Below are positions 3,390-52,361 of a DNA stretch of 64,000 nt, in pieces; position 1 is the stretch's first letter; every line of letters begins with the position of its first letter. Source of the DNA: Myxococcales bacterium. GTDB lineage: Bacteria > Myxococcota > Myxococcia > Myxococcales > 40CM-4-68-19. A program made the translations under genes and the position numbers. The DNA is taken from assembly GCA_036513415.1 (NCBI GenBank), contig DATBZA010000107.1, positions 37,773 to 101,772 on the forward strand. The letters run 5' to 3'. The notes beneath the pieces were generated by a model. That model searched no databases and was not told where the DNA came from. It saw only the letters and a list, made by a program, of their open reading frames with translations.

Positions 3390-3433
3390 CTCCGGCTCAG
3401 CGAACGTGAACGCAACCGACTTCAAGGAGAGCA

Positions 3434-5053
3434 ATGCATATGCTGACGAAGAATCGTAAAGGGCCCTGGCGAAAAGCCGTCCTGATGGGCGCCTTGCTGT
3501 TGGCCCCCGCGCTGAGCGCGGAGGACCGTTCACCCAAGTCCCAATCCAGGCAATGGCGAGTGGCGGGACAGAATCTGGACAATAGCCGGAGCCAGCCGAA
3601 AGAGCACTCGATCACCGCGGCGAACGTCACCGGCCTGAGGGAAAAATGGGTGTTTACGACGGGTGGAGACGTCTCTGCGACTCCCACCGTGGATGGTGAC
3701 GCAGTCTACTTCCCCGATTCGGGCGGCAATCTGTTCGCGGTCGAGAAGAAGAGTGGCCGCCTCATCTGGTCTCATCAGATCTCCGAGTACGATGGTGTGG
3801 CCGGTTCCATCTCTCGTGTCAGTCCTGCCTTGGATGGAGACCAGGTCGTCATTGGGGACATCCTCAGCTCCAATCAGGTCCACAATGGCGCGAACGTGAT
3901 CTCGGTCGATCGGAGATCAGGAAGACGCCGGTGGATCACGCAGGTGGACAGTCATCCGGCAGCAATCATCACTGGATCGCCGGTCGTCTTCGATGGGGTC
4001 GTCTACGTGGGGGTCTCTTCGATCGAAGAGACCCTGGCAACGAATCCAGCCTATCCGTGCTGCACCTTTCGCGGCAGCGTGGTCGCGCTCGACGCCAGGT
4101 CCGGTGCGATGCTCTGGCAGACCCACGATATGCCTGACAACGGCGGTCAACAGGGCGGATACAGCGGCGGAGCGGTGTGGCAACCACCGGCGATCGATCC
4201 AAAGCGCGGTTCGCTCTTCATCGGGACCGGCAACAACTACACCGCGCCCGCGGAGGTGGAAGCTTGCCAGAACGCGGATCCCACCGCGAACTGCGCGGCG
4301 GCTGATGATTTCTTCGACACCGCCCTTGCATTGGATCTGAAGACCGGGCGGATCAAGTGGTCGAAGAGGCTGCAGGGGAACGACACCTGGACGGTCGCGT
4401 GTGTGCTCCCTACAGGACCGAAGGCGAACTGTCCCGTACCCACCAGCCCGGATTTCGACCTGGGAGGATCGGGACCCAACCTGGTGGGCGGCATCGTCGG
4501 CTTTGGTCAGAAGAGCGGCATCTATTGGGCGTTGAATCCCGATGACGGCCACATCGTCTGGAGCGCGGCGGTCGGTCCAGGCGGTTCGCTCGGAGGGATC
4601 CAGTGGGGTACCGCGACCGACGGACGGCGTATCTATGTCGCCATCGCGAACAGGAACATGATGCCTTACACGTTGGTGCCCTCGGGACGGCAGATTACCT
4701 GGGGTTCGTGGAGCGCTCTCGATGTCGACACTGGGACGATCCTCTGGCAAACCGCGGACCCCACTCCAGGCACCATGGACCTGGCCTCGGTGAGCGTTGC
4801 AAATGGCGTCCTGTACGCGGGCTCCTACTCGGGGCAGATGTACGCGCTGAACACGATCACCGGAAACATCCTCTGGGGCTTTGCGAGCGGGGGCTCGGTA
4901 CTGGACGGGCCATCCATCGTGGACGGCACCGTCTATTGGGGATCGGGTTATCGAAACATCCCCCCCGGAACGGGAAACAACAAGATCTACGCGTTTAGTG
5001 TTTCTGGTTCGGACGATCATGAGGAGCAGTCGGACGATCAAGGCGAGCATTGA
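3434..5053 (+). CDS. secreted PQQ-like / BamB-like beta-propeller repeat protein
   Basis: Signal peptide (AVLMGALLLAPALSA). Repeated ...G.(V/L)YAL(D/N)..TG..LW motifs typical of PQQ-type beta-propeller blades. SD AAGGAG upstream. Confidence 0.75.
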   Translation: MHMLTKNRKGPWRKAVLMGALLLAPALSAEDRSPKSQSRQWRVAGQNLDNSRSQPKEHSITAANVTGLREKWVFTTGGDVSATPTVDGDAVYFPDSGGNLFAVEKKSGRLIWSHQISEYDGVAGSISRVSPALDGDQVVIGDILSSNQVHNGANVISVDRRSGRRRWITQVDSHPAAIITGSPVVFDGVVYVGVSSIEETLATNPAYPCCTFRGSVVALDARSGAMLWQTHDMPDNGGQQGGYSGGAVWQPPAIDPKRGSLFIGTGNNYTAPAEVEACQNADPTANCAAADDFFDTALALDLKTGRIKWSKRLQGNDTWTVACVLPTGPKANCPVPTSPDFDLGGSGPNLVGGIVGFGQKSGIYWALNPDDGHIVWSAAVGPGGSLGGIQWGTATDGRRIYVAIANRNMMPYTLVPSGRQITWGSWSALDVDTGTILWQTADPTPGTMDLASVSVANGVLYAGSYSGQMYALNTITGNILWGFASGGSVLDGPSIVDGTVYWGSGYRNIPPGTGNNKIYAFSVSGSDDHEEQSDDQGEH

Positions 5054-5214
5054 TCGGATTCGAATGCTTGCGCCAGCCCCGTAGCAATCCAGCGATCTCG
5101 TGGCCCGGCGGTCCATCCTCGGATGCCGCCGGGTCACCCCGCAGCTGTGTCGTCAGGCTGTCAGGAATCGATCAGTTCACGACATGAACGGGGTCGCTCG
5201 CCTCGGAACGGCGA

Positions 5215-5230
5215 TGGCACGTCGCCTGCA
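5215..5230 (+). promoter_or_regulatory. candidate sigma-54 promoter TGGCACG-N4-CTGCA
   Basis: Perfect -24 TGGCACG, -12 CTGCA, correct spacing, in an intergenic region. The predicted TSS near 5241 leaves an 18-nt leader containing GGAGGA before ATG 5259. Confidence 0.55.
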
Positions 5231-5258
5231 TTTCGGTGTTGAACCAGTGGAGGAAATC

Positions 5259-5825
5259 ATGACGAGCCGTCATCCCCTTGCCGCCCCGGCGGCGATCATG
5301 CTTGCGCTCACCGCCTGCGCATCCGTCGACGTGCGCACGGTGACGAGCCCGGCCGCGAACCTGGGCGGGTTGCACACGTTCGCCGTCATGCCGCAACCGG
5401 AACGGCGATCGGCCGAGGCGCATCCGACGACCGACCCGATGCTGGTGAATTCCATCAGCAACCGCGCGTTGCGCACCGACCTCGTCACGGGATTCCAAAA
5501 CCGCGGCTACGTGCTTTCCGACCATCCGGACTTCGCGGTCGCGTACTATGCATCGGCGAGTGAAAAGCTGGACGTCGCAGAGTGGGATTATGGCTACCGG
5601 TATGATCCGCTCTGGTGGTCCGACCCTGGGCCCTACCCGCCGGCGGTCACATACACCGAGGGGACCGTCATCGTCGACGTGATCAATCCCAGCACCAAGG
5701 AGCTGCTCTGGCGCGGACAGGGAGTGGCCCGGGTGTCGGATGACCAGGGGCAGTACGAGCAGGACCTGGGGAAGACGGTCACGGCGATCCTCGACAAGTT
5801 CCCGCGGGCGGCGGGGGGTTCGTAG
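5259..5825 (+). CDS. DUF4136-like lipoprotein
   Basis: Lipobox LALTAC after a short signal peptide. Overall similarity to the DUF4136 family, recalled rather than searched. Start set at ATG 5259 with GGAGGA SD. Confidence 0.7.
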   Translation: MTSRHPLAAPAAIMLALTACASVDVRTVTSPAANLGGLHTFAVMPQPERRSAEAHPTTDPMLVNSISNRALRTDLVTGFQNRGYVLSDHPDFAVAYYASASEKLDVAEWDYGYRYDPLWWSDPGPYPPAVTYTEGTVIVDVINPSTKELLWRGQGVARVSDDQGQYEQDLGKTVTAILDKFPRAAGGS

Positions 5826-8343: not shown

Positions 8344-8811
8344 ATGACGACACGTCCTCCGGTGCCTCCGTTCACTCAGGAATCAGCCGCTCAGAAAGTA
8401 CGATTGGCCGAAGATGGCTGGAACTCCCGCGATCCGGAGAAGGTCGCCCTGGCCTATACGCCGGATTCGCGCTGGAGGAACCGCTCGGAGTTCGTCAACG
8501 GAAGGCAGGAGATCGTCGCCTTTCTTGCGCGCAAGTGGAACAAAGAGCTGGACTATCGGCTGATCAAGGAGCTTTGGGTCTTCGGGGGACCTCGGATCGC
8601 AGTCCGCTTCGCGTATGAGTGGCACGATGACTCTGGGAATTGGTACCGCTCGTACGGCAATGAGAACTGGGAATTCGACGAGAATGGCCTGATGCGGTTG
8701 CGGCTGGCCTGCATCAATGATCTTCCCATCAGGGAATCGGACCGGAAGTATCGCTGGACCCTGGGCCGACGTCCGGATGGTCATCCGGGATTGACCGACC
8801 TTGGTCTCTAG
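8344..8811 (+). CDS. DUF1348 family (NTF2-like) protein
   Basis: The sequence [32 protein letters not shown]...WEFDENGLM matches my recollection of DUF1348. Start moved to ATG 8344. Confidence 0.75.
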
Positions 8812-8830
8812 CCCCGGCGCCGCAGCCAAC

Positions 8831-8854
8831 TCAGGGGCTACGCTTGAGCGAGGT
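8831..8854 (+). repeat. copy A of conserved 24-nt element TCAGGGGCTACGCTTGAGCGAGGT
   Basis: 23/24 identical to 34724..34747. Both copies start exactly 20 nt after the last base of a TAG stop codon. Weaker similarity extends about 20 nt on each side. Confidence 0.85.
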
Positions 8855-8886
8855 CATTCGGCAGTTCCGGTGTGAGATGCCGTTCC

Positions 8887-8902
8887 AGGCATCACTCTTG
8901 CT
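8887..8902 (+). promoter_or_regulatory. candidate sigma-54 promoter AGGCAT-N5-TTGCT
   Basis: GGCA and TTGCT with correct spacing, intergenic, about 60 nt upstream of the pal-like ATG 8961. Confidence 0.35.
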
Positions 8903-8960
8903 AGGTCCACTTGCAACCGGGCGCAGGAAAGCCGCTGTCCCCGGACTCAAGGAGTGCGCA

Positions 8961-9494
8961 ATGAAATCGATCTGGATCTTCGCTGCCGCTGTATTGGCCG
9001 CCGCTGCCTGCTCGCATGCGCAGCCGCCTCCTTCCGCCTCAACGCAGCCGGCTGTGGAAGCAGCTCCGCCCCCCGCGCCGCCCGTTCCTGCCGTGGCAGA
9101 GGAACCGGCGCCGGCTCCGCGAACCGTGGAGGTGGAGATCGTCGCAACCAGCGTCTACTTCGACTTCGACAGCTCCGAGCTGAGCCCGGAAACGCGAACC
9201 ACGCTGCAGACGTTCTTCGAGCTGGCGCGGCAGCGCCCGGACAAGGACCTTCGCATCGAGGGGAATTGCGACGAACGTGGCACGCGGGAGTACAACCTGG
9301 CGCTCGGGCAGAGGCGCGCCGATGCCGCGAAAAGCTACCTCGTGAACCTCGGCCTGGATGCATCGCGCATCACGGCGATCAGCTTCGGCAAGGAGCGGCC
9401 GCGCGCGCTCGGAGACGACGAGGCGGCCTGGAGGCAGAACCGTCGCGATGATCTGATGGCGGCAACGGAGGCCGTGAGCCAGGCGTCCCGCTGA
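8961..9494 (+). CDS. pal: peptidoglycan-associated lipoprotein (OmpA-C family)
   Basis: Lipobox LAAAAC. Pro/Ala linker. Pal signature VYFDFDSSEL...IEGNCDERGTREYNLALGQRRADAAKSYL...ISFGKERP. SD AAGGAG before ATG 8961. Confidence 0.8.
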   Translation: MKSIWIFAAAVLAAAACSHAQPPPSASTQPAVEAAPPPAPPVPAVAEEPAPAPRTVEVEIVATSVYFDFDSSELSPETRTTLQTFFELARQRPDKDLRIEGNCDERGTREYNLALGQRRADAAKSYLVNLGLDASRITAISFGKERPRALGDDEAAWRQNRRDDLMAATEAVSQASR

Positions 9495-34074: not shown

Positions 34075-34704
34075 ATGGCTGGACACGACCCGATCCGTGT
34101 TCTCTGCGTCGACGACCACCCTGTGCTTCGAGAGGGGATCGCTGCCCTGGTCGAGAGTCAGCGAGACATGAAGCTCGTGGCCGAGGCGGGGAGCGGACGC
34201 CAGGCCCTTCTCAGCTTTCGCGAGCACCGTCCAGACGTCACCCTGATGGATCTGAGGCTTCCCGACATGAGCGGCATCGATACGTTGGCCGCGATCCGCT
34301 CGGCGTTCCCCGATGCGCGCATCATCATGCTGACGACGTTCGAAGGCGACGTCGAGATCCGGCGCGCCCTCGAGGCGGGCGCGCGAGGGTACATGTTGAA
34401 GAGCATGCCTCCGCAGGACTTGATCGACGGGATCCGGCAAGTGCATGCGGGGAAGAAACGCATTCCGCTTGAGGTCGGGTCCCATCTCGCGGAGCACATG
34501 GGCGAGGAGGACCTGACGGCTCGCGAGGTCGAGGTCCTGCAGCAGATCGCCGGCGGGAACCGGAATCAAGACATCGCGAGTCGACTCTTCATCGCTGAAG
34601 AAACGGTCAAGGTCCACGTCAAGCACGTCATGGAGAAGCTCGGAGCAAGCGACCGCACTGAAGCCGTCTCGATCGCGCTCCGGCGCGGGATCATCCAGCT
34701 TTAG
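34075..34704 (+). CDS. NarL/LuxR family response regulator
   Basis: ATG directly follows the kinase stop. REC (VLCVDDHPVLREG...LMDLRLPDMSG) + LuxR HTH (LTAREVEVLQQIAGGNRNQDIASRLFIAEETVKVH). Confidence 0.9.
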   Translation: MAGHDPIRVLCVDDHPVLREGIAALVESQRDMKLVAEAGSGRQALLSFREHRPDVTLMDLRLPDMSGIDTLAAIRSAFPDARIIMLTTFEGDVEIRRALEAGARGYMLKSMPPQDLIDGIRQVHAGKKRIPLEVGSHLAEHMGEEDLTAREVEVLQQIAGGNRNQDIASRLFIAEETVKVHVKHVMEKLGASDRTEAVSIALRRGIIQL

Positions 34705-34723
34705 CCGCGGCCACTTCAGATCC

Positions 34724-34747
34724 TCAGGGGCTACGTTTGAGCGAGGT
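34724..34747 (+). repeat. copy B of conserved 24-nt element TCAGGGGCTACGTTTGAGCGAGGT
   Basis: 23/24 identical to 8831..8854. It has the same 19-nt offset from a TAG stop (34702-34704). Confidence 0.85.
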
Positions 34748-34835
34748 TCGTCGGGCGTTCGATGGCGATCCGCGCGAATACCACGATCGAGGGACTCGCC
34801 CCGGAGCAGGATTCGCTAGCCTGTGCGCGCCGAAC

Positions 34836-35258
34836 ATGCAGCGGCTATTCTCGACCTTTCCGGATGGGCGCCCCGGCGCAGGATTGCTGCTCTTGCGCGC
34901 GGCCGTTGGCGGCTCGCTCCTGGTCCTCGGCGGAACCTACCTCGTGCACGCGCATCAAGCCGGCGGGTGGAGCCTGGCCATCGGACTGCTGGCCGCCGCG
35001 AGCGGCGCCTCGCTGCTGATCGGATTCCTGACGCCGTTGGGCGTCCTCGCCGGCCTGGTGGCCATCGGCCTCGCCCTGGTGTGGCCGTCACCCGCCACTC
35101 GCGTCCTCCCGAACGGAAAGCTCGCCGCGCTCTTGCTGGGCGTCCTCGCTGCCGCGGTCGCCCTGTTGGGTCCCGGCGCGCTCTCCATCGACGCTCGACT
35201 GTTCGGGCGCCGCGAGATCAGCATTCCCCGCGCCCGGAACGGAGCTCCGGGAGAGTGA
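34836..35258 (+). CDS. DoxX-like small integral membrane protein
   Basis: Four hydrophobic segments. N-terminal LLLLRAAVGGSLLVLG pattern resembling DoxX. Start set to ATG 34836. Confidence 0.5.
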   Translation: MQRLFSTFPDGRPGAGLLLLRAAVGGSLLVLGGTYLVHAHQAGGWSLAIGLLAAASGASLLIGFLTPLGVLAGLVAIGLALVWPSPATRVLPNGKLAALLLGVLAAAVALLGPGALSIDARLFGRREISIPRARNGAPGE

Positions 35259-49182: not shown

Positions 49183-50672
49183 GGCCCCTTCACATTCTCC
49201 ATCTCGAAGACGATCCGAGTGACTCGGAGCTCGTTCAAGCGCGGCTGGAGGTGGACTGTGTCGCCTGCCACGTAACGCGTGTCGAGACCGAGGTTGATTT
49301 CTGCGCCTCGCTCGACCGAGGTGGCTATGACCTCATCCTTGCGGATTACACGCTTCCCTCGTTCGACGGCCTTTCAGCGTTGAAGATCGCGCTGGAAAAG
49401 CGCCCGGAAATGCCGTTCATCTTCGTTTCTGGAACGCTGGACGAGGAGCTGGCGATCGAAGCGCTCAAGATCGGGGCGACGGACTACGTCTTCAAGACTC
49501 GTCTGTCGAGGCTCCTCCCTTCGGTTCAAAGAGCGCTTCGCGAAGGCGAGGAGAGAGCCGAGCGCAAGCGGGCAGAGGAAGGCCTGCGCCGGAGTGAGGC
49601 TTATCTGGCCGAGGCACAGAGACTCAGCCACACGGGCAGTTTCGGCTGGGACCTTTCCAGCGGCGATATCTATTGGTCACTGGAGACCTTTCGAATATTT
49701 GAGTTCGAGCCGGTGACCAAGCCGACATTGGAGCGAGTGCTGCAACGAACCCACCCGGAAGACAGGTCGACTGTCCGGCAGCTCATCGATTCCGCTTCAG
49801 AGGAGAGAAAGGGGTTTGATTTCGAGCATCGGCTGCTGATGCCGGATGGCGCCGTCAAGTACATCAGAGTGGTCGCTCATCCTTCGACAAGCGGCCCGGC
49901 GTTCGTAGGAGCGGTGACGGACATCACCGAGAGCAAGCGGGCGCAGGAAGCTCTGCGAACGAGCCAGGCAGAGCTCGCTCACGTCACTCGCATCATGACG
50001 ATGGGGGAGTTGGCCGCTTCCATCGCCCACGAAGTCAATCAGCCGCTCTCCGCCATCGTCGCCAGCGGCAGCGCCTGTATTCGCTGGCTCGACGGTCCCG
50101 TCCCCAGTCTTGCGGACGCGCGCGAAGCGGCCCAGCGCATCGTCCGAGACGGGAAGCGAGCGGGCGAGGTGATCGCACGAATCCGCGCACTGACGCGGAA
50201 AGCGACCACCGAAAAGGAACGTCTCGACCTCAACTGCACGATCGAGGAGGTCGTCGCCCTCGTCGGGGGCGAGATCCTGAAGAACCGGGTGGCGCTTCGA
50301 ACGGAGCTTCGAGATCACCTCCCCGCAGTATTGGGCGATCGCATCCAACTGCAGCAACTGGTGCTGAACCTCGTCATGAACGCGATCGAAGCCATGAGCG
50401 CAGTTGCAGACCGGCCTCGGGAGTTGGCCATCACGACCCAGAACGTCGAGACGGATCAGGTGGTCGTGGCGGTGCGAGACTCGGGAGTTGGCCTCGACCC
50501 GAAGAGCAGCGAACGCATCTTCGAAGCTTTCTATACGACCAAGCCGGCAGGCATGGGCATGGGGCTATCGATCAGCCGATCGATTGTCCAGAATCACGGG
50601 GGCCGCCTCTGGGCGGTAGCGAACGACGGCCCCGGCACTACGTTCCAATTCACCGTTCCCAAGTACGAGTAA
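49179..50672 (+). CDS. hybrid REC-PAS histidine kinase
   Basis: GTG overlaps the upstream stop (GTGA). REC (ILHLEDDPSDSEL...ILADYTLPSFDG). PAS (SEAYLAEAQRLSHTGSFGW...). H-box [26 protein letters not shown]. HATPase. Confidence 0.9.
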   Translation: MRPLHILHLEDDPSDSELVQARLEVDCVACHVTRVETEVDFCASLDRGGYDLILADYTLPSFDGLSALKIALEKRPEMPFIFVSGTLDEELAIEALKIGATDYVFKTRLSRLLPSVQRALREGEERAERKRAEEGLRRSEAYLAEAQRLSHTGSFGWDLSSGDIYWSLETFRIFEFEPVTKPTLERVLQRTHPEDRSTVRQLIDSASEERKGFDFEHRLLMPDGAVKYIRVVAHPSTSGPAFVGAVTDITESKRAQEALRTSQAELAHVTRIMTMGELAASIAHEVNQPLSAIVASGSACIRWLDGPVPSLADAREAAQRIVRDGKRAGEVIARIRALTRKATTEKERLDLNCTIEEVVALVGGEILKNRVALRTELRDHLPAVLGDRIQLQQLVLNLVMNAIEAMSAVADRPRELAITTQNVETDQVVVAVRDSGVGLDPKSSERIFEAFYTTKPAGMGMGLSISRSIVQNHGGRLWAVANDGPGTTFQFTVPKYE

Positions 50673-50815
50673 GAGCGGTCGTCAGTGGTCCCGTATCCTT
50701 GCAACCCGCCGCGGTTGGCGGAAGCGGAGCTACGGGTGGGCACTCGATCTACCCGGCCCAGACCGCCGGCAATGTCAGACCCCTCTGGCAATCTGTCCCC
50801 AATCAAATGGGATAG

Positions 50816-51183
50816 CTCGAATTCAAATTGCCGCAGCGAGGTGGACGCCGTCGCGGCGCCGGACGCAAGCCAAAAGGGCCACGACCGATGGTGTCGCACA
50901 AGGCACCCCGACCGAGCTGGTCAACGCGATCGCATACGTTCTTGGGAACCACGCGCATCACCACGGGGGGCCGTCTGCCGCGGACGCGTTCTCGTCAGCG
51001 TGTTGCGATCGCAATCGCTTGATCGGCGAGCTCCGCTCCTGGCTGCTGCGCGTCGGCTGGCGGCGGGCAAGGCGAAAGCTGCCAGACTGGATTTCGGGAA
51101 TGCCTGGAACCTTGCGGGCTGCGCGGCTACGCTCGGGCGAATGGCCGTCGACCGAACCGCTCCTCACATCCGCATCACCGTAA
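50816..51183 (+). pseudogene. probable internally deleted, frameshifted remnant of an IS200/RayT-like (Y1) transposase gene
   Basis: One frame reads LPQRGGRRRGAGRKPKGPRPMVSHKAPRP. After a frame change near 50910 it reads ELVNAIAYVLGNHAHHHG...DAFSSA...SWLLRVGWRR...* (stop 51181-51183). From memory, these resemble the N- and C-terminal ends of that family. The HUH/Tyr catalytic core is absent. Confidence 0.4.
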
Positions 51184-52361
51184 GCGATGCGCGCCGAATC
51201 GCGATCGCCGCGCAGCGGATTGTGGGAGCCCCACCGGCGACGCGGAAGGGGATCCTCGAAGTCGTCCGCGACGTCGGATACCTCCAACTCGATCCGATCA
51301 ACGTCGTCGCGCGGAACCCCCAGCTCGTGCTCTGGACCCGGCTGGGCCGCTACGATCCGGCGCTCCTCGAGGGGTTGCTCGCGAAGCGCGAGCTCTTCGA
51401 GACGGTCTCGCTCATCGTCCCGACCAGCGACCTGGCCGTCCACTCGGCGACGATGCGCGCGTACCGGCGAGCGACGGACCCGGGCGCCGCCCGGTCGGCG
51501 CACGGTAGTCTCGCCGGTGCGGGCGGCGGCACGTGGCCGCAGCGCGCGGCAAAGTTGCTGGCGCAGAACCCGCAGCTCCGGCGCAGCGTGCTCATGCGTC
51601 TGCGGCGCGAAGGCCCGCTTCCACTGACCGCGTTCGAAGATCGGGCCCTCGTCAGCTGGACCTCGGGCGTGTGGAACGACGAGCGGAACGTGACGATGAT
51701 GCTCGCGATCCTCCAGCGCCGTGGCGAGGTCGTCGTCGCGGGACGCAGCCGCGGGCGGAAGCTGTGGGCGCTCGCCCAGGGCTGGCTGCCGAAATCCGTG
51801 CCGCTCTCCGGGCCCGCTCTCGAGCGCGAGGCGACCTTGCGGGCGCTGCGTGCGATGGGCGTGGCGACGCTGAAGCAGCTGCGCTGGCACTACGCGTTCG
51901 CGCGGCACGTGACGCAGCACGCACTCGCCGCGCTGGTGCGCGAGGGCGCTGCAGTGCGGGTGGAGATCGCCGACGCTGCTTGGAAGGGCCCGCATTACGC
52001 GCTGGCCGGCGTCCCGATGCGCGACGGCTGGGAGGGCCGGACGACGTTGCTGTCGCCGTTCGACAACCTCATCATCGACCGCGCCCGCACCGAGCAGCTC
52101 TTCGGCTACCGCTACCGCATGGAGATCTATACTCCTCCGCACCTTCGGAAGCTCGGGTACTGGGCGATGCCCGTGCTCCACGGCGACCGCATCGTCGGGA
52201 GCGTCGATCCACGCTTCGAGCGCGCGCGGGGCGAGCTGGTCGTCAACAAGGTGGTGCTCGAGCCCAGTGCGCCAGGAAATGTCATGCGTCACGTCAAGGG
52301 CGCGGTCGAAGAGCTTGCAGCATTCGTAGGTGCGACGAAGGTGCGCTGGCCGCGAGCGTAA
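51141..52361 (+). CDS. YcaQ-like winged-helix DNA-binding protein (DUF1006; interstrand-crosslink glycosylase family)
   Basis: 406 aa. ISVSDARRIAIAAQ..., GYLQLDPINVVARN, LFGYRYRMEIYTPPHLRKLGYWAMPVL motifs recalled for the family. Confidence 0.7.
   Translation: MAVDRTAPHIRITVSDARRIAIAAQRIVGAPPATRKGILEVVRDVGYLQLDPINVVARNPQLVLWTRLGRYDPALLEGLLAKRELFETVSLIVPTSDLAVHSATMRAYRRATDPGAARSAHGSLAGAGGGTWPQRAAKLLAQNPQLRRSVLMRLRREGPLPLTAFEDRALVSWTSGVWNDERNVTMMLAILQRRGEVVVAGRSRGRKLWALAQGWLPKSVPLSGPALEREATLRALRAMGVATLKQLRWHYAFARHVTQHALAALVREGAAVRVEIADAAWKGPHYALAGVPMRDGWEGRTTLLSPFDNLIIDRARTEQLFGYRYRMEIYTPPHLRKLGYWAMPVLHGDRIVGSVDPRFERARGELVVNKVVLEPSAPGNVMRHVKGAVEELAAFVGATKVRWPRA

Follow-up and report, generated by a model that had tools for sequence, protein, structure and literature searches.

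Most small mobile repeats of bacteria have TA termini and target duplications, and they are usually A+T-rich and bounded by terminal inverted repeats (TIRs) (Delihas 2008, PMC2229807). RUP, ERIC and Correia, which are TA-flanked MITEs, have this architecture: they are small (100–200 bp), non-coding and multi-copy, carry TIRs of 7–24 bp, fold end-to-end, and show TA termini, a target-site duplication, and filled and empty sites among relatives (PMC2229807). CIR, found in Caulobacter and Brucella, is listed as a TIR-less exception with TA termini and independent stem-loops, and is only partly MITE-like (PMC2229807). GTAG-REPs are short, GC-rich stem-loops with (G)TAG at the foot, occur in several sequence subfamilies, are associated with a RAYT (the REPtron), and have termini that often supply TAG stops (Di Nocera, De Gregorio & Rocco 2013, PMC3733652). 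Also described are TIRYTs, enzymes that resemble RAYTs but have flanks other than REPs (PMC3733652).

The repeat family presented here is previously undescribed and belongs to the small dispersed mobile repeats. It combines a REP-like hairpin and the provision of stops with MITE-like TA flanks, and does so without TIRs or a demonstrated RAYT. Two of its copies lie in the window, by which is meant the whole 64,000-nt stretch of DNA analyzed; loci elsewhere carry L numbers. Like RUP, ERIC and Correia, the family is small, non-coding and multi-copy, with truncated derivatives. Unlike them, it is G+C-rich and shorter, folds in its 5′ third only, and has no convincing TIR beyond TAG/CTA on inspection of the consensus and the subfamily alignments. 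It shares with CIR the absence of TIRs, the TA termini and the independent stem-loops, but the two have no sequence relation, and CIRs have a CcrM methylation motif and no described placement on stop codons. The Geobacter MITE Chunjie was considered and set aside as dissimilar (9-bp repeats, 21-bp TIRs, A+T-rich).

The window copies and their family

The 24-mer TCAGGGGCTACG(C/T)TTGAGCGAGGT occurs on the forward strand at 8831–8854 and again at 34724–34747 with 23/24 identity, as a preliminary description of the window had reported; none of 100 dinucleotide-preserving shuffles gave any match. In both places it starts 20 nt past the G of a TAG stop codon (19 nt between), a spacing that was also reported and that holds for the DUF1348 gene stop at 8809–8811 and the regulator stop at 34702–34704. 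Pfam searches upheld the names given to these two genes. The next ATG is 130 nt downstream of copy 1 (8961) and 111 nt downstream of copy 2 (34835), in agreement with the 110–130 nt given earlier. The label “DoxX-like” for the gene after copy 2 went unconfirmed, as its 140-aa product has no Pfam match. The features of the two loci are as follows.

8809–8888, + strand: copy 1, near full length (nhmmer profile match 8809–8884, E 8e-19; empty site in L049)
8809–8810, + strand: left TA of copy 1, making the DUF1348 TAG stop with the element’s first G
8811–8885, + strand: body of copy 1, the element between its TA flanks
8886–8888, + strand: right TA(G) duplicate of copy 1, decayed to CAG
8809–8840, + strand: hairpin module of copy 1, with outer arms TAGCCCC (8809–8815) and GGGGCTA (8834–8840)
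8831–8854, + strand: 24-nt core of copy 1, which covers the 3′ outer-stem arm and runs into the tail
8841–8885, + strand: non-palindromic tail of copy 1 (CGCTTGAGCGAGGTCATTCGGCAGTTCCGGTGTGAGATGCCGTTC), from the family alignment
34702–34751, + strand: copy 2, 3′-truncated or diverged (nhmmer match 34702–34769, E 1e-9)
34724–34747, + strand: 24-nt core of copy 2, from the pattern match
8347–8811, + strand: DUF1348 gene (Pfam PF07080, E 3e-67), whose TAG stop is the copy 1 insertion site
34075–34704, + strand: NarL/GerE-type response regulator gene (Pfam Response_reg+GerE), whose TAG stop adjoins copy 2

Pairwise alignment confines the similarity of the two copies to the ~65 nt from the TAG to about 20 nt beyond the core (about 8809–8875). 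A larger segmental duplication, named in the preliminary description as a refuting outcome, is ruled out by this local similarity. In the family alignment, the TAG falls within the repeated unit instead of beside it. Copy 2 consists of the regulator TAG stop, a hairpin with a type C-like inner segment, and the core. A profile search of the window found no third family copy and no extra hairpin-only or tail-only fragments. The best account of the two 24-mers, put forward with good though not full confidence, is a dispersed mobile repeat of ~75 nt that is non-coding and non-autonomous; each 24-mer would be the conserved core of one copy.

A search for further copies and their position relative to stops, as had been proposed, supports this reading. 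A pattern scan returned 38 soil-metagenome loci that match the relaxed 20-nt core exactly, of which ~34 have a much longer shared consensus. About 30 copies are independent and mostly lie on stops, and all are on soil-metagenome contigs; they were ascertained via the core, whose conservation is inflated accordingly. The consensus reads (C)TAG-CCCCGG, a variable segment of 12–16 nt, CTCA-GGGGCTA, and CGCTTGAGCGAGGTCATTCGGCAGTTC(C)GGTTGTGAGATGCGTTC-TA, with the tail ending GCGTTC-TA. Its boundaries are sharp, at (C)TAG on the 5′ end and at ...GCGTTCTA on the 3′ end, and the unit is ~75 nt long (~80 nt with its TA flanks). Each unit comprises a REP-like GC hairpin (TAGCCCC...GGGGCTA), a variable inner segment, and a non-palindromic tail of ~45 nt ending in GCGTTC. 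The profile search added full-length copies that have diverged, modules with the hairpin alone, and tandem arrays in which hairpin modules are joined by a TCAGACACGG linker.

The inner segment exists in discrete versions, A, A′, B, B′ and C. Type A (GGCCACCGGAGGTGGC) adds a second tier to the hairpin; type A′ (GCCGCC...GGCGGC) is a compensated form of type A. No inner stem is present in types B and B′; copy 1 of the window is of type B (GGCGCCGCAGCCAAC). Type C is GGCCCCTTGAGATAC, which the inner segment of copy 2 resembles. At one orthologous locus, strains differ by a block swap of the 12-nt inner segment, CCCTTGAGATAC in L003/L005/L023 vs. CACCGGAGGTGG in L006/L013/L018/L032, while the remainder of the element and its flanks are ~97% identical. 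Gene conversion between copies or repeated insertion at the same site could produce such a swap. A copy at L036 represented by its right part only was considered as a parent element and rejected, as it is another inner-segment variant. There (L036 1156–1250), a convergent gene that is out of frame with the element’s terminal CTA reads ~10 codons in (...MARTHDRTAE*), and the repeat provides it with a new C-terminus.

Outside soil metagenomes, a scan of 185,579 species-representative reference genomes with the relaxed 20-nt core found no family copy. Its two matches (Agarivorans and Pontixanthobacter) are coding coincidences, both encoding the peptide GLRLSE, and the idea of a tyrosine-recombinase “GLRLSE” coding remnant was dropped on that basis. 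Plasmid and phage collections likewise held no family match. The window genes have close orthologues in soil metagenomes and in MAGs with the label Deltaproteobacteria or Myxococcales, and the nearest cultured match for one linked gene is Vitiosangium, at 70%. The host of the family is probably, and tentatively, an uncultured, Myxococcota-like soil lineage.

Two coding explanations of the 24-mer were also rejected. In both window copies, the frame continues past the TAG to a TGA (...LRGYA*/...LRGYV*), as it would in a shared C-terminal extension reached by readthrough. Inner lengths differ among the subfamilies, however, and no reading frame is conserved across them. A shared N-terminal leader of the downstream genes (TTG-AGC-GAG-GT, “MSEV”) is ruled out by the orthologues without the repeat block, whose downstream gene is called from an ATG (140 aa). 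In the window (34737–35258) and in L041–L043, gene callers start this gene at the TTG within the element (173 aa, “MSEV...”); the 173-aa call is an annotation artefact of the repeat.

Hairpin structure and the RNA reading

The hairpin module is 33 nt long, yet the repeated unit of ~75 nt also includes a conserved non-palindromic tail. The pairing of TAGCC with GGCTA that had been noted in the window copies is real and extends to TAGCC(C/G)C with GGGGCTA; the outer stem of copy 2 (TAGCCGC/GGGGCTA) has one mismatch. A reverse-strand GTAG beside the short stem was recovered as well, as CTAC at 8838–8841. Its TAG pairs with the opposite arm, so that only the G is unpaired. The 24-nt core contains a further short palindrome, CGCTnnAGCG.

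Type A copies have a hairpin of two tiers, the outer stem TAGCCCC/GGGGCTA and the inner stem, and their ~90-nt unit folds at about −39 kcal/mol (z about −1.7 vs. shuffles). Among 13 distinct type A hairpins, 96% of cells are paired, and compensatory double changes occur at one pair per helix (CG to GC in L022; AU to GC three times). Because the regex used to select these hairpins favored paired sequences, this covariation is supportive only. On folding of the window copies, which the preliminary description had suggested, neither copy does better than shuffles (z +0.29 for copy 1, which has no strong inner stem, and +1.74 for copy 2).

Maintenance of the stem by compensatory changes is what would be expected of a host-beneficial RNA module at the 3′ end of genes, one that stabilizes or terminates mRNA or modulates translation and that is kept and spread for this function. 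The majority orientation, in which the hairpin adjoins the upstream gene, suits such a module, and in E. coli, REPs within 15 nt of stops affect translation (PMC12306157). At a single related locus, a T-run follows the hairpin: a bare hairpin at L022 5171–5141 runs into GGTTTTCTT, in the manner of an intrinsic terminator. The window hairpins themselves are weak, however, and across 8600–9100 no terminator-like site, T-run or sigma-70 promoter-like site accompanies copy 1. No Rfam 15 family matches the window at gathering thresholds, and 8700–9000 has no match even at E ≤ 10. Nor is the orientation absolute, as the gene is abutted only by the tail in L007a and the L018 group. Taken with the turnover of copies described below, an RNA module selected for its function is an unlikely account of the family. 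By analogy with REPs, an effect of the mobile repeat on its host would likely take the form of a stem-loop at the mRNA 3′ end.

A separate structure of the window, unrelated to the repeat family, is a perfect 11-bp GC-rich inverted repeat at 5101–5136 (GGCCCGGCGG...CCGCCGGGTC region). It lies between the co-directional ORFs 3410–5053 and 5085–5825 and may be a terminator-type hairpin.

Filled and empty sites among relatives

The site of copy 1 is filled in the window (GGTCTC-TAG-[CCCCGG...GCCGTTC]-CAG-GCATCACT) and empty in L049, a syntenic orthologue at 95% (GGTCTT-TAG-GCACCACT). In the 93% orthologues L044–47, the site reads TAG-GCGCGGCCGCGGC-CAG, which is an internally deleted remnant with the same decayed CAG. 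Since L049 is empty but the more distant L044 keeps a remnant, precise loss or strain-to-strain recombination is indicated.

At copy 2, a 46-nt block comprising the hairpin and core (34706–34751) is missing from the 92% orthologues L050–52, which align as TAGC|CGGACGTTCGATGG; the missing block is bounded by a CG microrepeat. Orthologues of the regulator all end in TAG, whether the block is present or absent. Patchy similarity downstream of the 24-mer, another feature of the preliminary description, is indeed present, but at copy 2 it also occurs in orthologues that lack the hairpin and core. The sequence concerned, CGG(G/A)CGTTC, is kept in the block-less orthologues as well as in 84% orthologues and is native or older spacer.

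These sites suggest a simple scheme of integration. The element would insert at a TA dinucleotide and duplicate it, and because its ends are 5′-G...C-3′, each flank would read TAG on the strand pointing into the element, which would rebuild the stop on both strands. The 19-nt spacing from TAG to core would be the same in both window copies because the element sits on the stop TA. Possible targets would include a single TA common to two convergent genes with overlapping stops (CTAG/CTAA). A prediction followed from the TA duplication and the 5′-G...C-3′ ends, and was set before the test: loci with stops at both element ends should derive from convergent stops sharing one TA. This was borne out at L033. 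In its 90% and 82% orthologues, L060 and L062, the genes for a LytTR regulator and a UPF0014 protein overlap by exactly 4 nt, CTAG and CTAA, respectively. In L033, the same genes are separated by exactly one element, ...CGC-TA-[GCCCCGG...GCGCCTC]-TA-GGGCG. Thus TA stands on both sides of the element in the comparisons of copy 1 with L049 and of L033 with L060/L062, as expected of the target-site duplication of a MITE. Each site is represented by two taxa, and the filled/empty pairs fit insertion or precise deletion; the direction of events is in this sense inferred. In a 20.8-kb stretch of the 90% relative of L033, no family copy is present.

A second L033 copy, L033b, is an exception. Here, a 171-nt insert, of which only the first ~56 nt belong to the family, replaces 6 nt. 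The relative’s gene stops at TGA, there is no TA at the site, and TA duplication does not fit. Directly after the phosphoesterase stop of the relative lies a textbook sigma-54 promoter (TGGCAC-N5-TTGCT; L064 5085–5125/L033 6290–6300), which L033 retains downstream of the 171-nt insert.

The gain, loss or decay of copies between relatives at 90–95%, with conserved flanks, counts against the RNA module discussed above. Another suggestion is that the 24-mer is a shared protein-binding site, that is, an operator or upstream activator site through which a sigma-54 enhancer-binding protein or the NarL-type regulator controls the downstream genes. Both window copies do lie upstream of co-directional genes, a sigma-54-like −24/−12 motif follows copy 1, and the core contains the CGCTnnAGCG palindrome. 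Most family members, however, lie between convergent genes or beside unrelated ones, the promoter at 8887–8902 is kept in L049 without the element, and the copy 2 block is missing in 92% orthologues with the same gene order. An operator is very improbable. A false lead is removed in this way, in that the 24-mer is taken neither for a shared operator nor for an RNA gene, and such repeats can mislead motif searches for regulatory sites.

Several features of the neighboring spacers are of separate interest. The motif at 8887–8902 (AGGCAT-N5-TTGCT), of the sigma-54 −24/−12 type, is upstream of an OmpA/pal-like gene and conserved in all orthologues. At the empty site of L049, it reads TAGGCAC-cacta-TTGCT, with the −24 box overlapping the DUF1348 stop codon. 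Copy 1 is inserted exactly between the DUF1348 stop and the promoter, and neither is destroyed. In this lineage, a sigma-54 promoter directly at a stop codon seems to be a recurrent arrangement. A block at 34779–34800 (TACCACGATCGAGGGACTCGCC), in the spacer that separates the 140-aa gene from the response regulator gene, is near-invariant in 84–92% orthologues while the rest of the spacer varies; it may have a regulatory role independent of the repeat.

Stop codons at the element ends and the question of mobilization

In ~30/36 copies, the reading frame that the 5′ TAG closes is a long ORF whose GC1/GC2/GC3 values are of coding type. A gene finder based on the GC pattern proved too noisy, and Pfam validation was used instead. 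By this measure, at least 15 unrelated genes end at the 5′ TAG, 13 in metagenomes and two in the window. The former are:

Sigma-54 activator, BBP2 porin, Fe-ADH, UPF0014, PhaR, phosphoesterase and GNAT (Pfam)
PilZ, TatA, DUF6760, GATase1-like, EamA and molybdopterin-binding domain (Pfam)

Four convergent genes validated in the same way (MlaC, MAPEG, MFS and a LytTR regulator) have their TAG stop in the 3′ CTA of the element. In L017 and L033, both ends carry validated stops and the element makes up the whole intergenic region.

In a genome of 66% GC, tolerated TA sites would be rare, and the copies that persist would be found almost exclusively on TAG or TAA stops. The window has a GC content of 65.7%, and under a rough gene model stop codons account for ~10 of its 139 putatively neutral TA sites (7%). 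At least 24 of the 30 independent copies are on stops, against an expectation of ~7% (P ~1e-22 with the same rough model). This placement is so far above the neutral-TA expectation that TA rarity alone is not enough to explain it. Selection against other sites, a wider target or an unrecognized targeting rule may contribute to the excess. Placement almost exclusively at stops is also an argument for the RNA module.

A more radical reading of the same excess is a stop-codon-homing mobile element that picks TAG/TAA, the TA common to overlapping convergent stops included, beyond TA availability through an undescribed targeting rule or enzyme and that has neither inverted repeats nor a known transposase. 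Were this true, the rule might be, for instance, recognition of a gene 3′-end structure, and a mechanism would be at hand for creating intergenic spacers between formerly overlapping genes. Such homing appears rather improbable. On the preferred reading of a mobile repeat that integrates at TA, ends that rebuild the stop and insertion where convergent stops overlap make a neat design, though not one of a new category. The family offers an example, at the level of sequence, of a small mobile element that colonizes stop codons without harm to genes because its ends would rebuild TAG on both strands, even where it splits a pair that shares CTAG.

The means by which the element would move can be narrowed in part. 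The junctions are enriched for C before the TA and for G/A after it. The target of IS630 is CTAG, the TA of which is duplicated on insertion. This resemblance is a lead only, as neither IS630-like TIRs nor an IS630-like transposase was found for the family. A classical DDE-type MITE mechanism is not evident because there are no TIRs beyond TAG/CTA, and the searches made revealed no mobilizing enzyme, no transposase with matching ends and no parent IS.

Of the three options left standing in the preliminary description, the REP-like repeat comes closest, given the multiple copies, the GC hairpin and the (G)TAG. The argument offered for it did not survive, since the RayT-like remnant proposed at 50.8 kb lacks Pfam support: a six-frame Pfam search of 50450–51250 found no Y1/HUH transposase. 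The large ORF there (50685–52361) is an AlkZ-like DNA glycosylase (PF06224, E 1.5e-52), and the ~400 nt upstream of its likely start (50.7–51.1 kb) match no protein family in any frame. No transposase was spotted by eye among the window ORFs, and no RAYT of the kind that makes up a REPtron came to light in the regions covered.

A REP/REPIN-type element moved by a RAYT or TIRYT (HUH Y1) acting on single-stranded hairpins would nevertheless account for several properties of the family, and the TA would then reflect a motif that the enzyme cleaves or targets instead of a duplication of the DDE type. The reverse-strand GTAG sits right at the foot of a GC-rich palindrome, hairpins occur in tandem arrays, TIRs are lacking, an IS110-like element has entered a hairpin, GTAG-REP termini supply TAG stops, and TIRYTs with non-REP flanks are on record (PMC3733652). 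Weighing on the other side are the lack of a Y1 signal in the region first proposed, a unit of ~75 nt with a conserved 45-nt non-palindromic tail instead of a palindrome of 20–40 nt, and a TAG that is base-paired in the stem and not an unpaired tag. TA also stands on both sides of the element, as if duplicated. REPs of the GTAG super-family are marked by high copy number (>100 per genome) and by inverted dimers or BIMEs. The 64-kb window contains two copies of the present family; the only arrays seen are direct tandems, and no inverted dimers or BIME-like clusters were seen among the family copies. Movement by a RAYT is accordingly possible but doubtful.

The IS110-like insertion lies at L040 766–1730 (− strand), at CTCAG|GGGCTACG, within the final hairpin module of a tandem array. 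REPs are frequent targets of IS110-family elements. The ORF of the insertion is internally deleted, and it matches Pfam DEDD_Tnp_IS110 only weakly, short of the curated cut-off (E 7.7e-5). The insertion has subterminal inverted repeats, ATGGAACGACC, and is flanked by TCAG on both sides.
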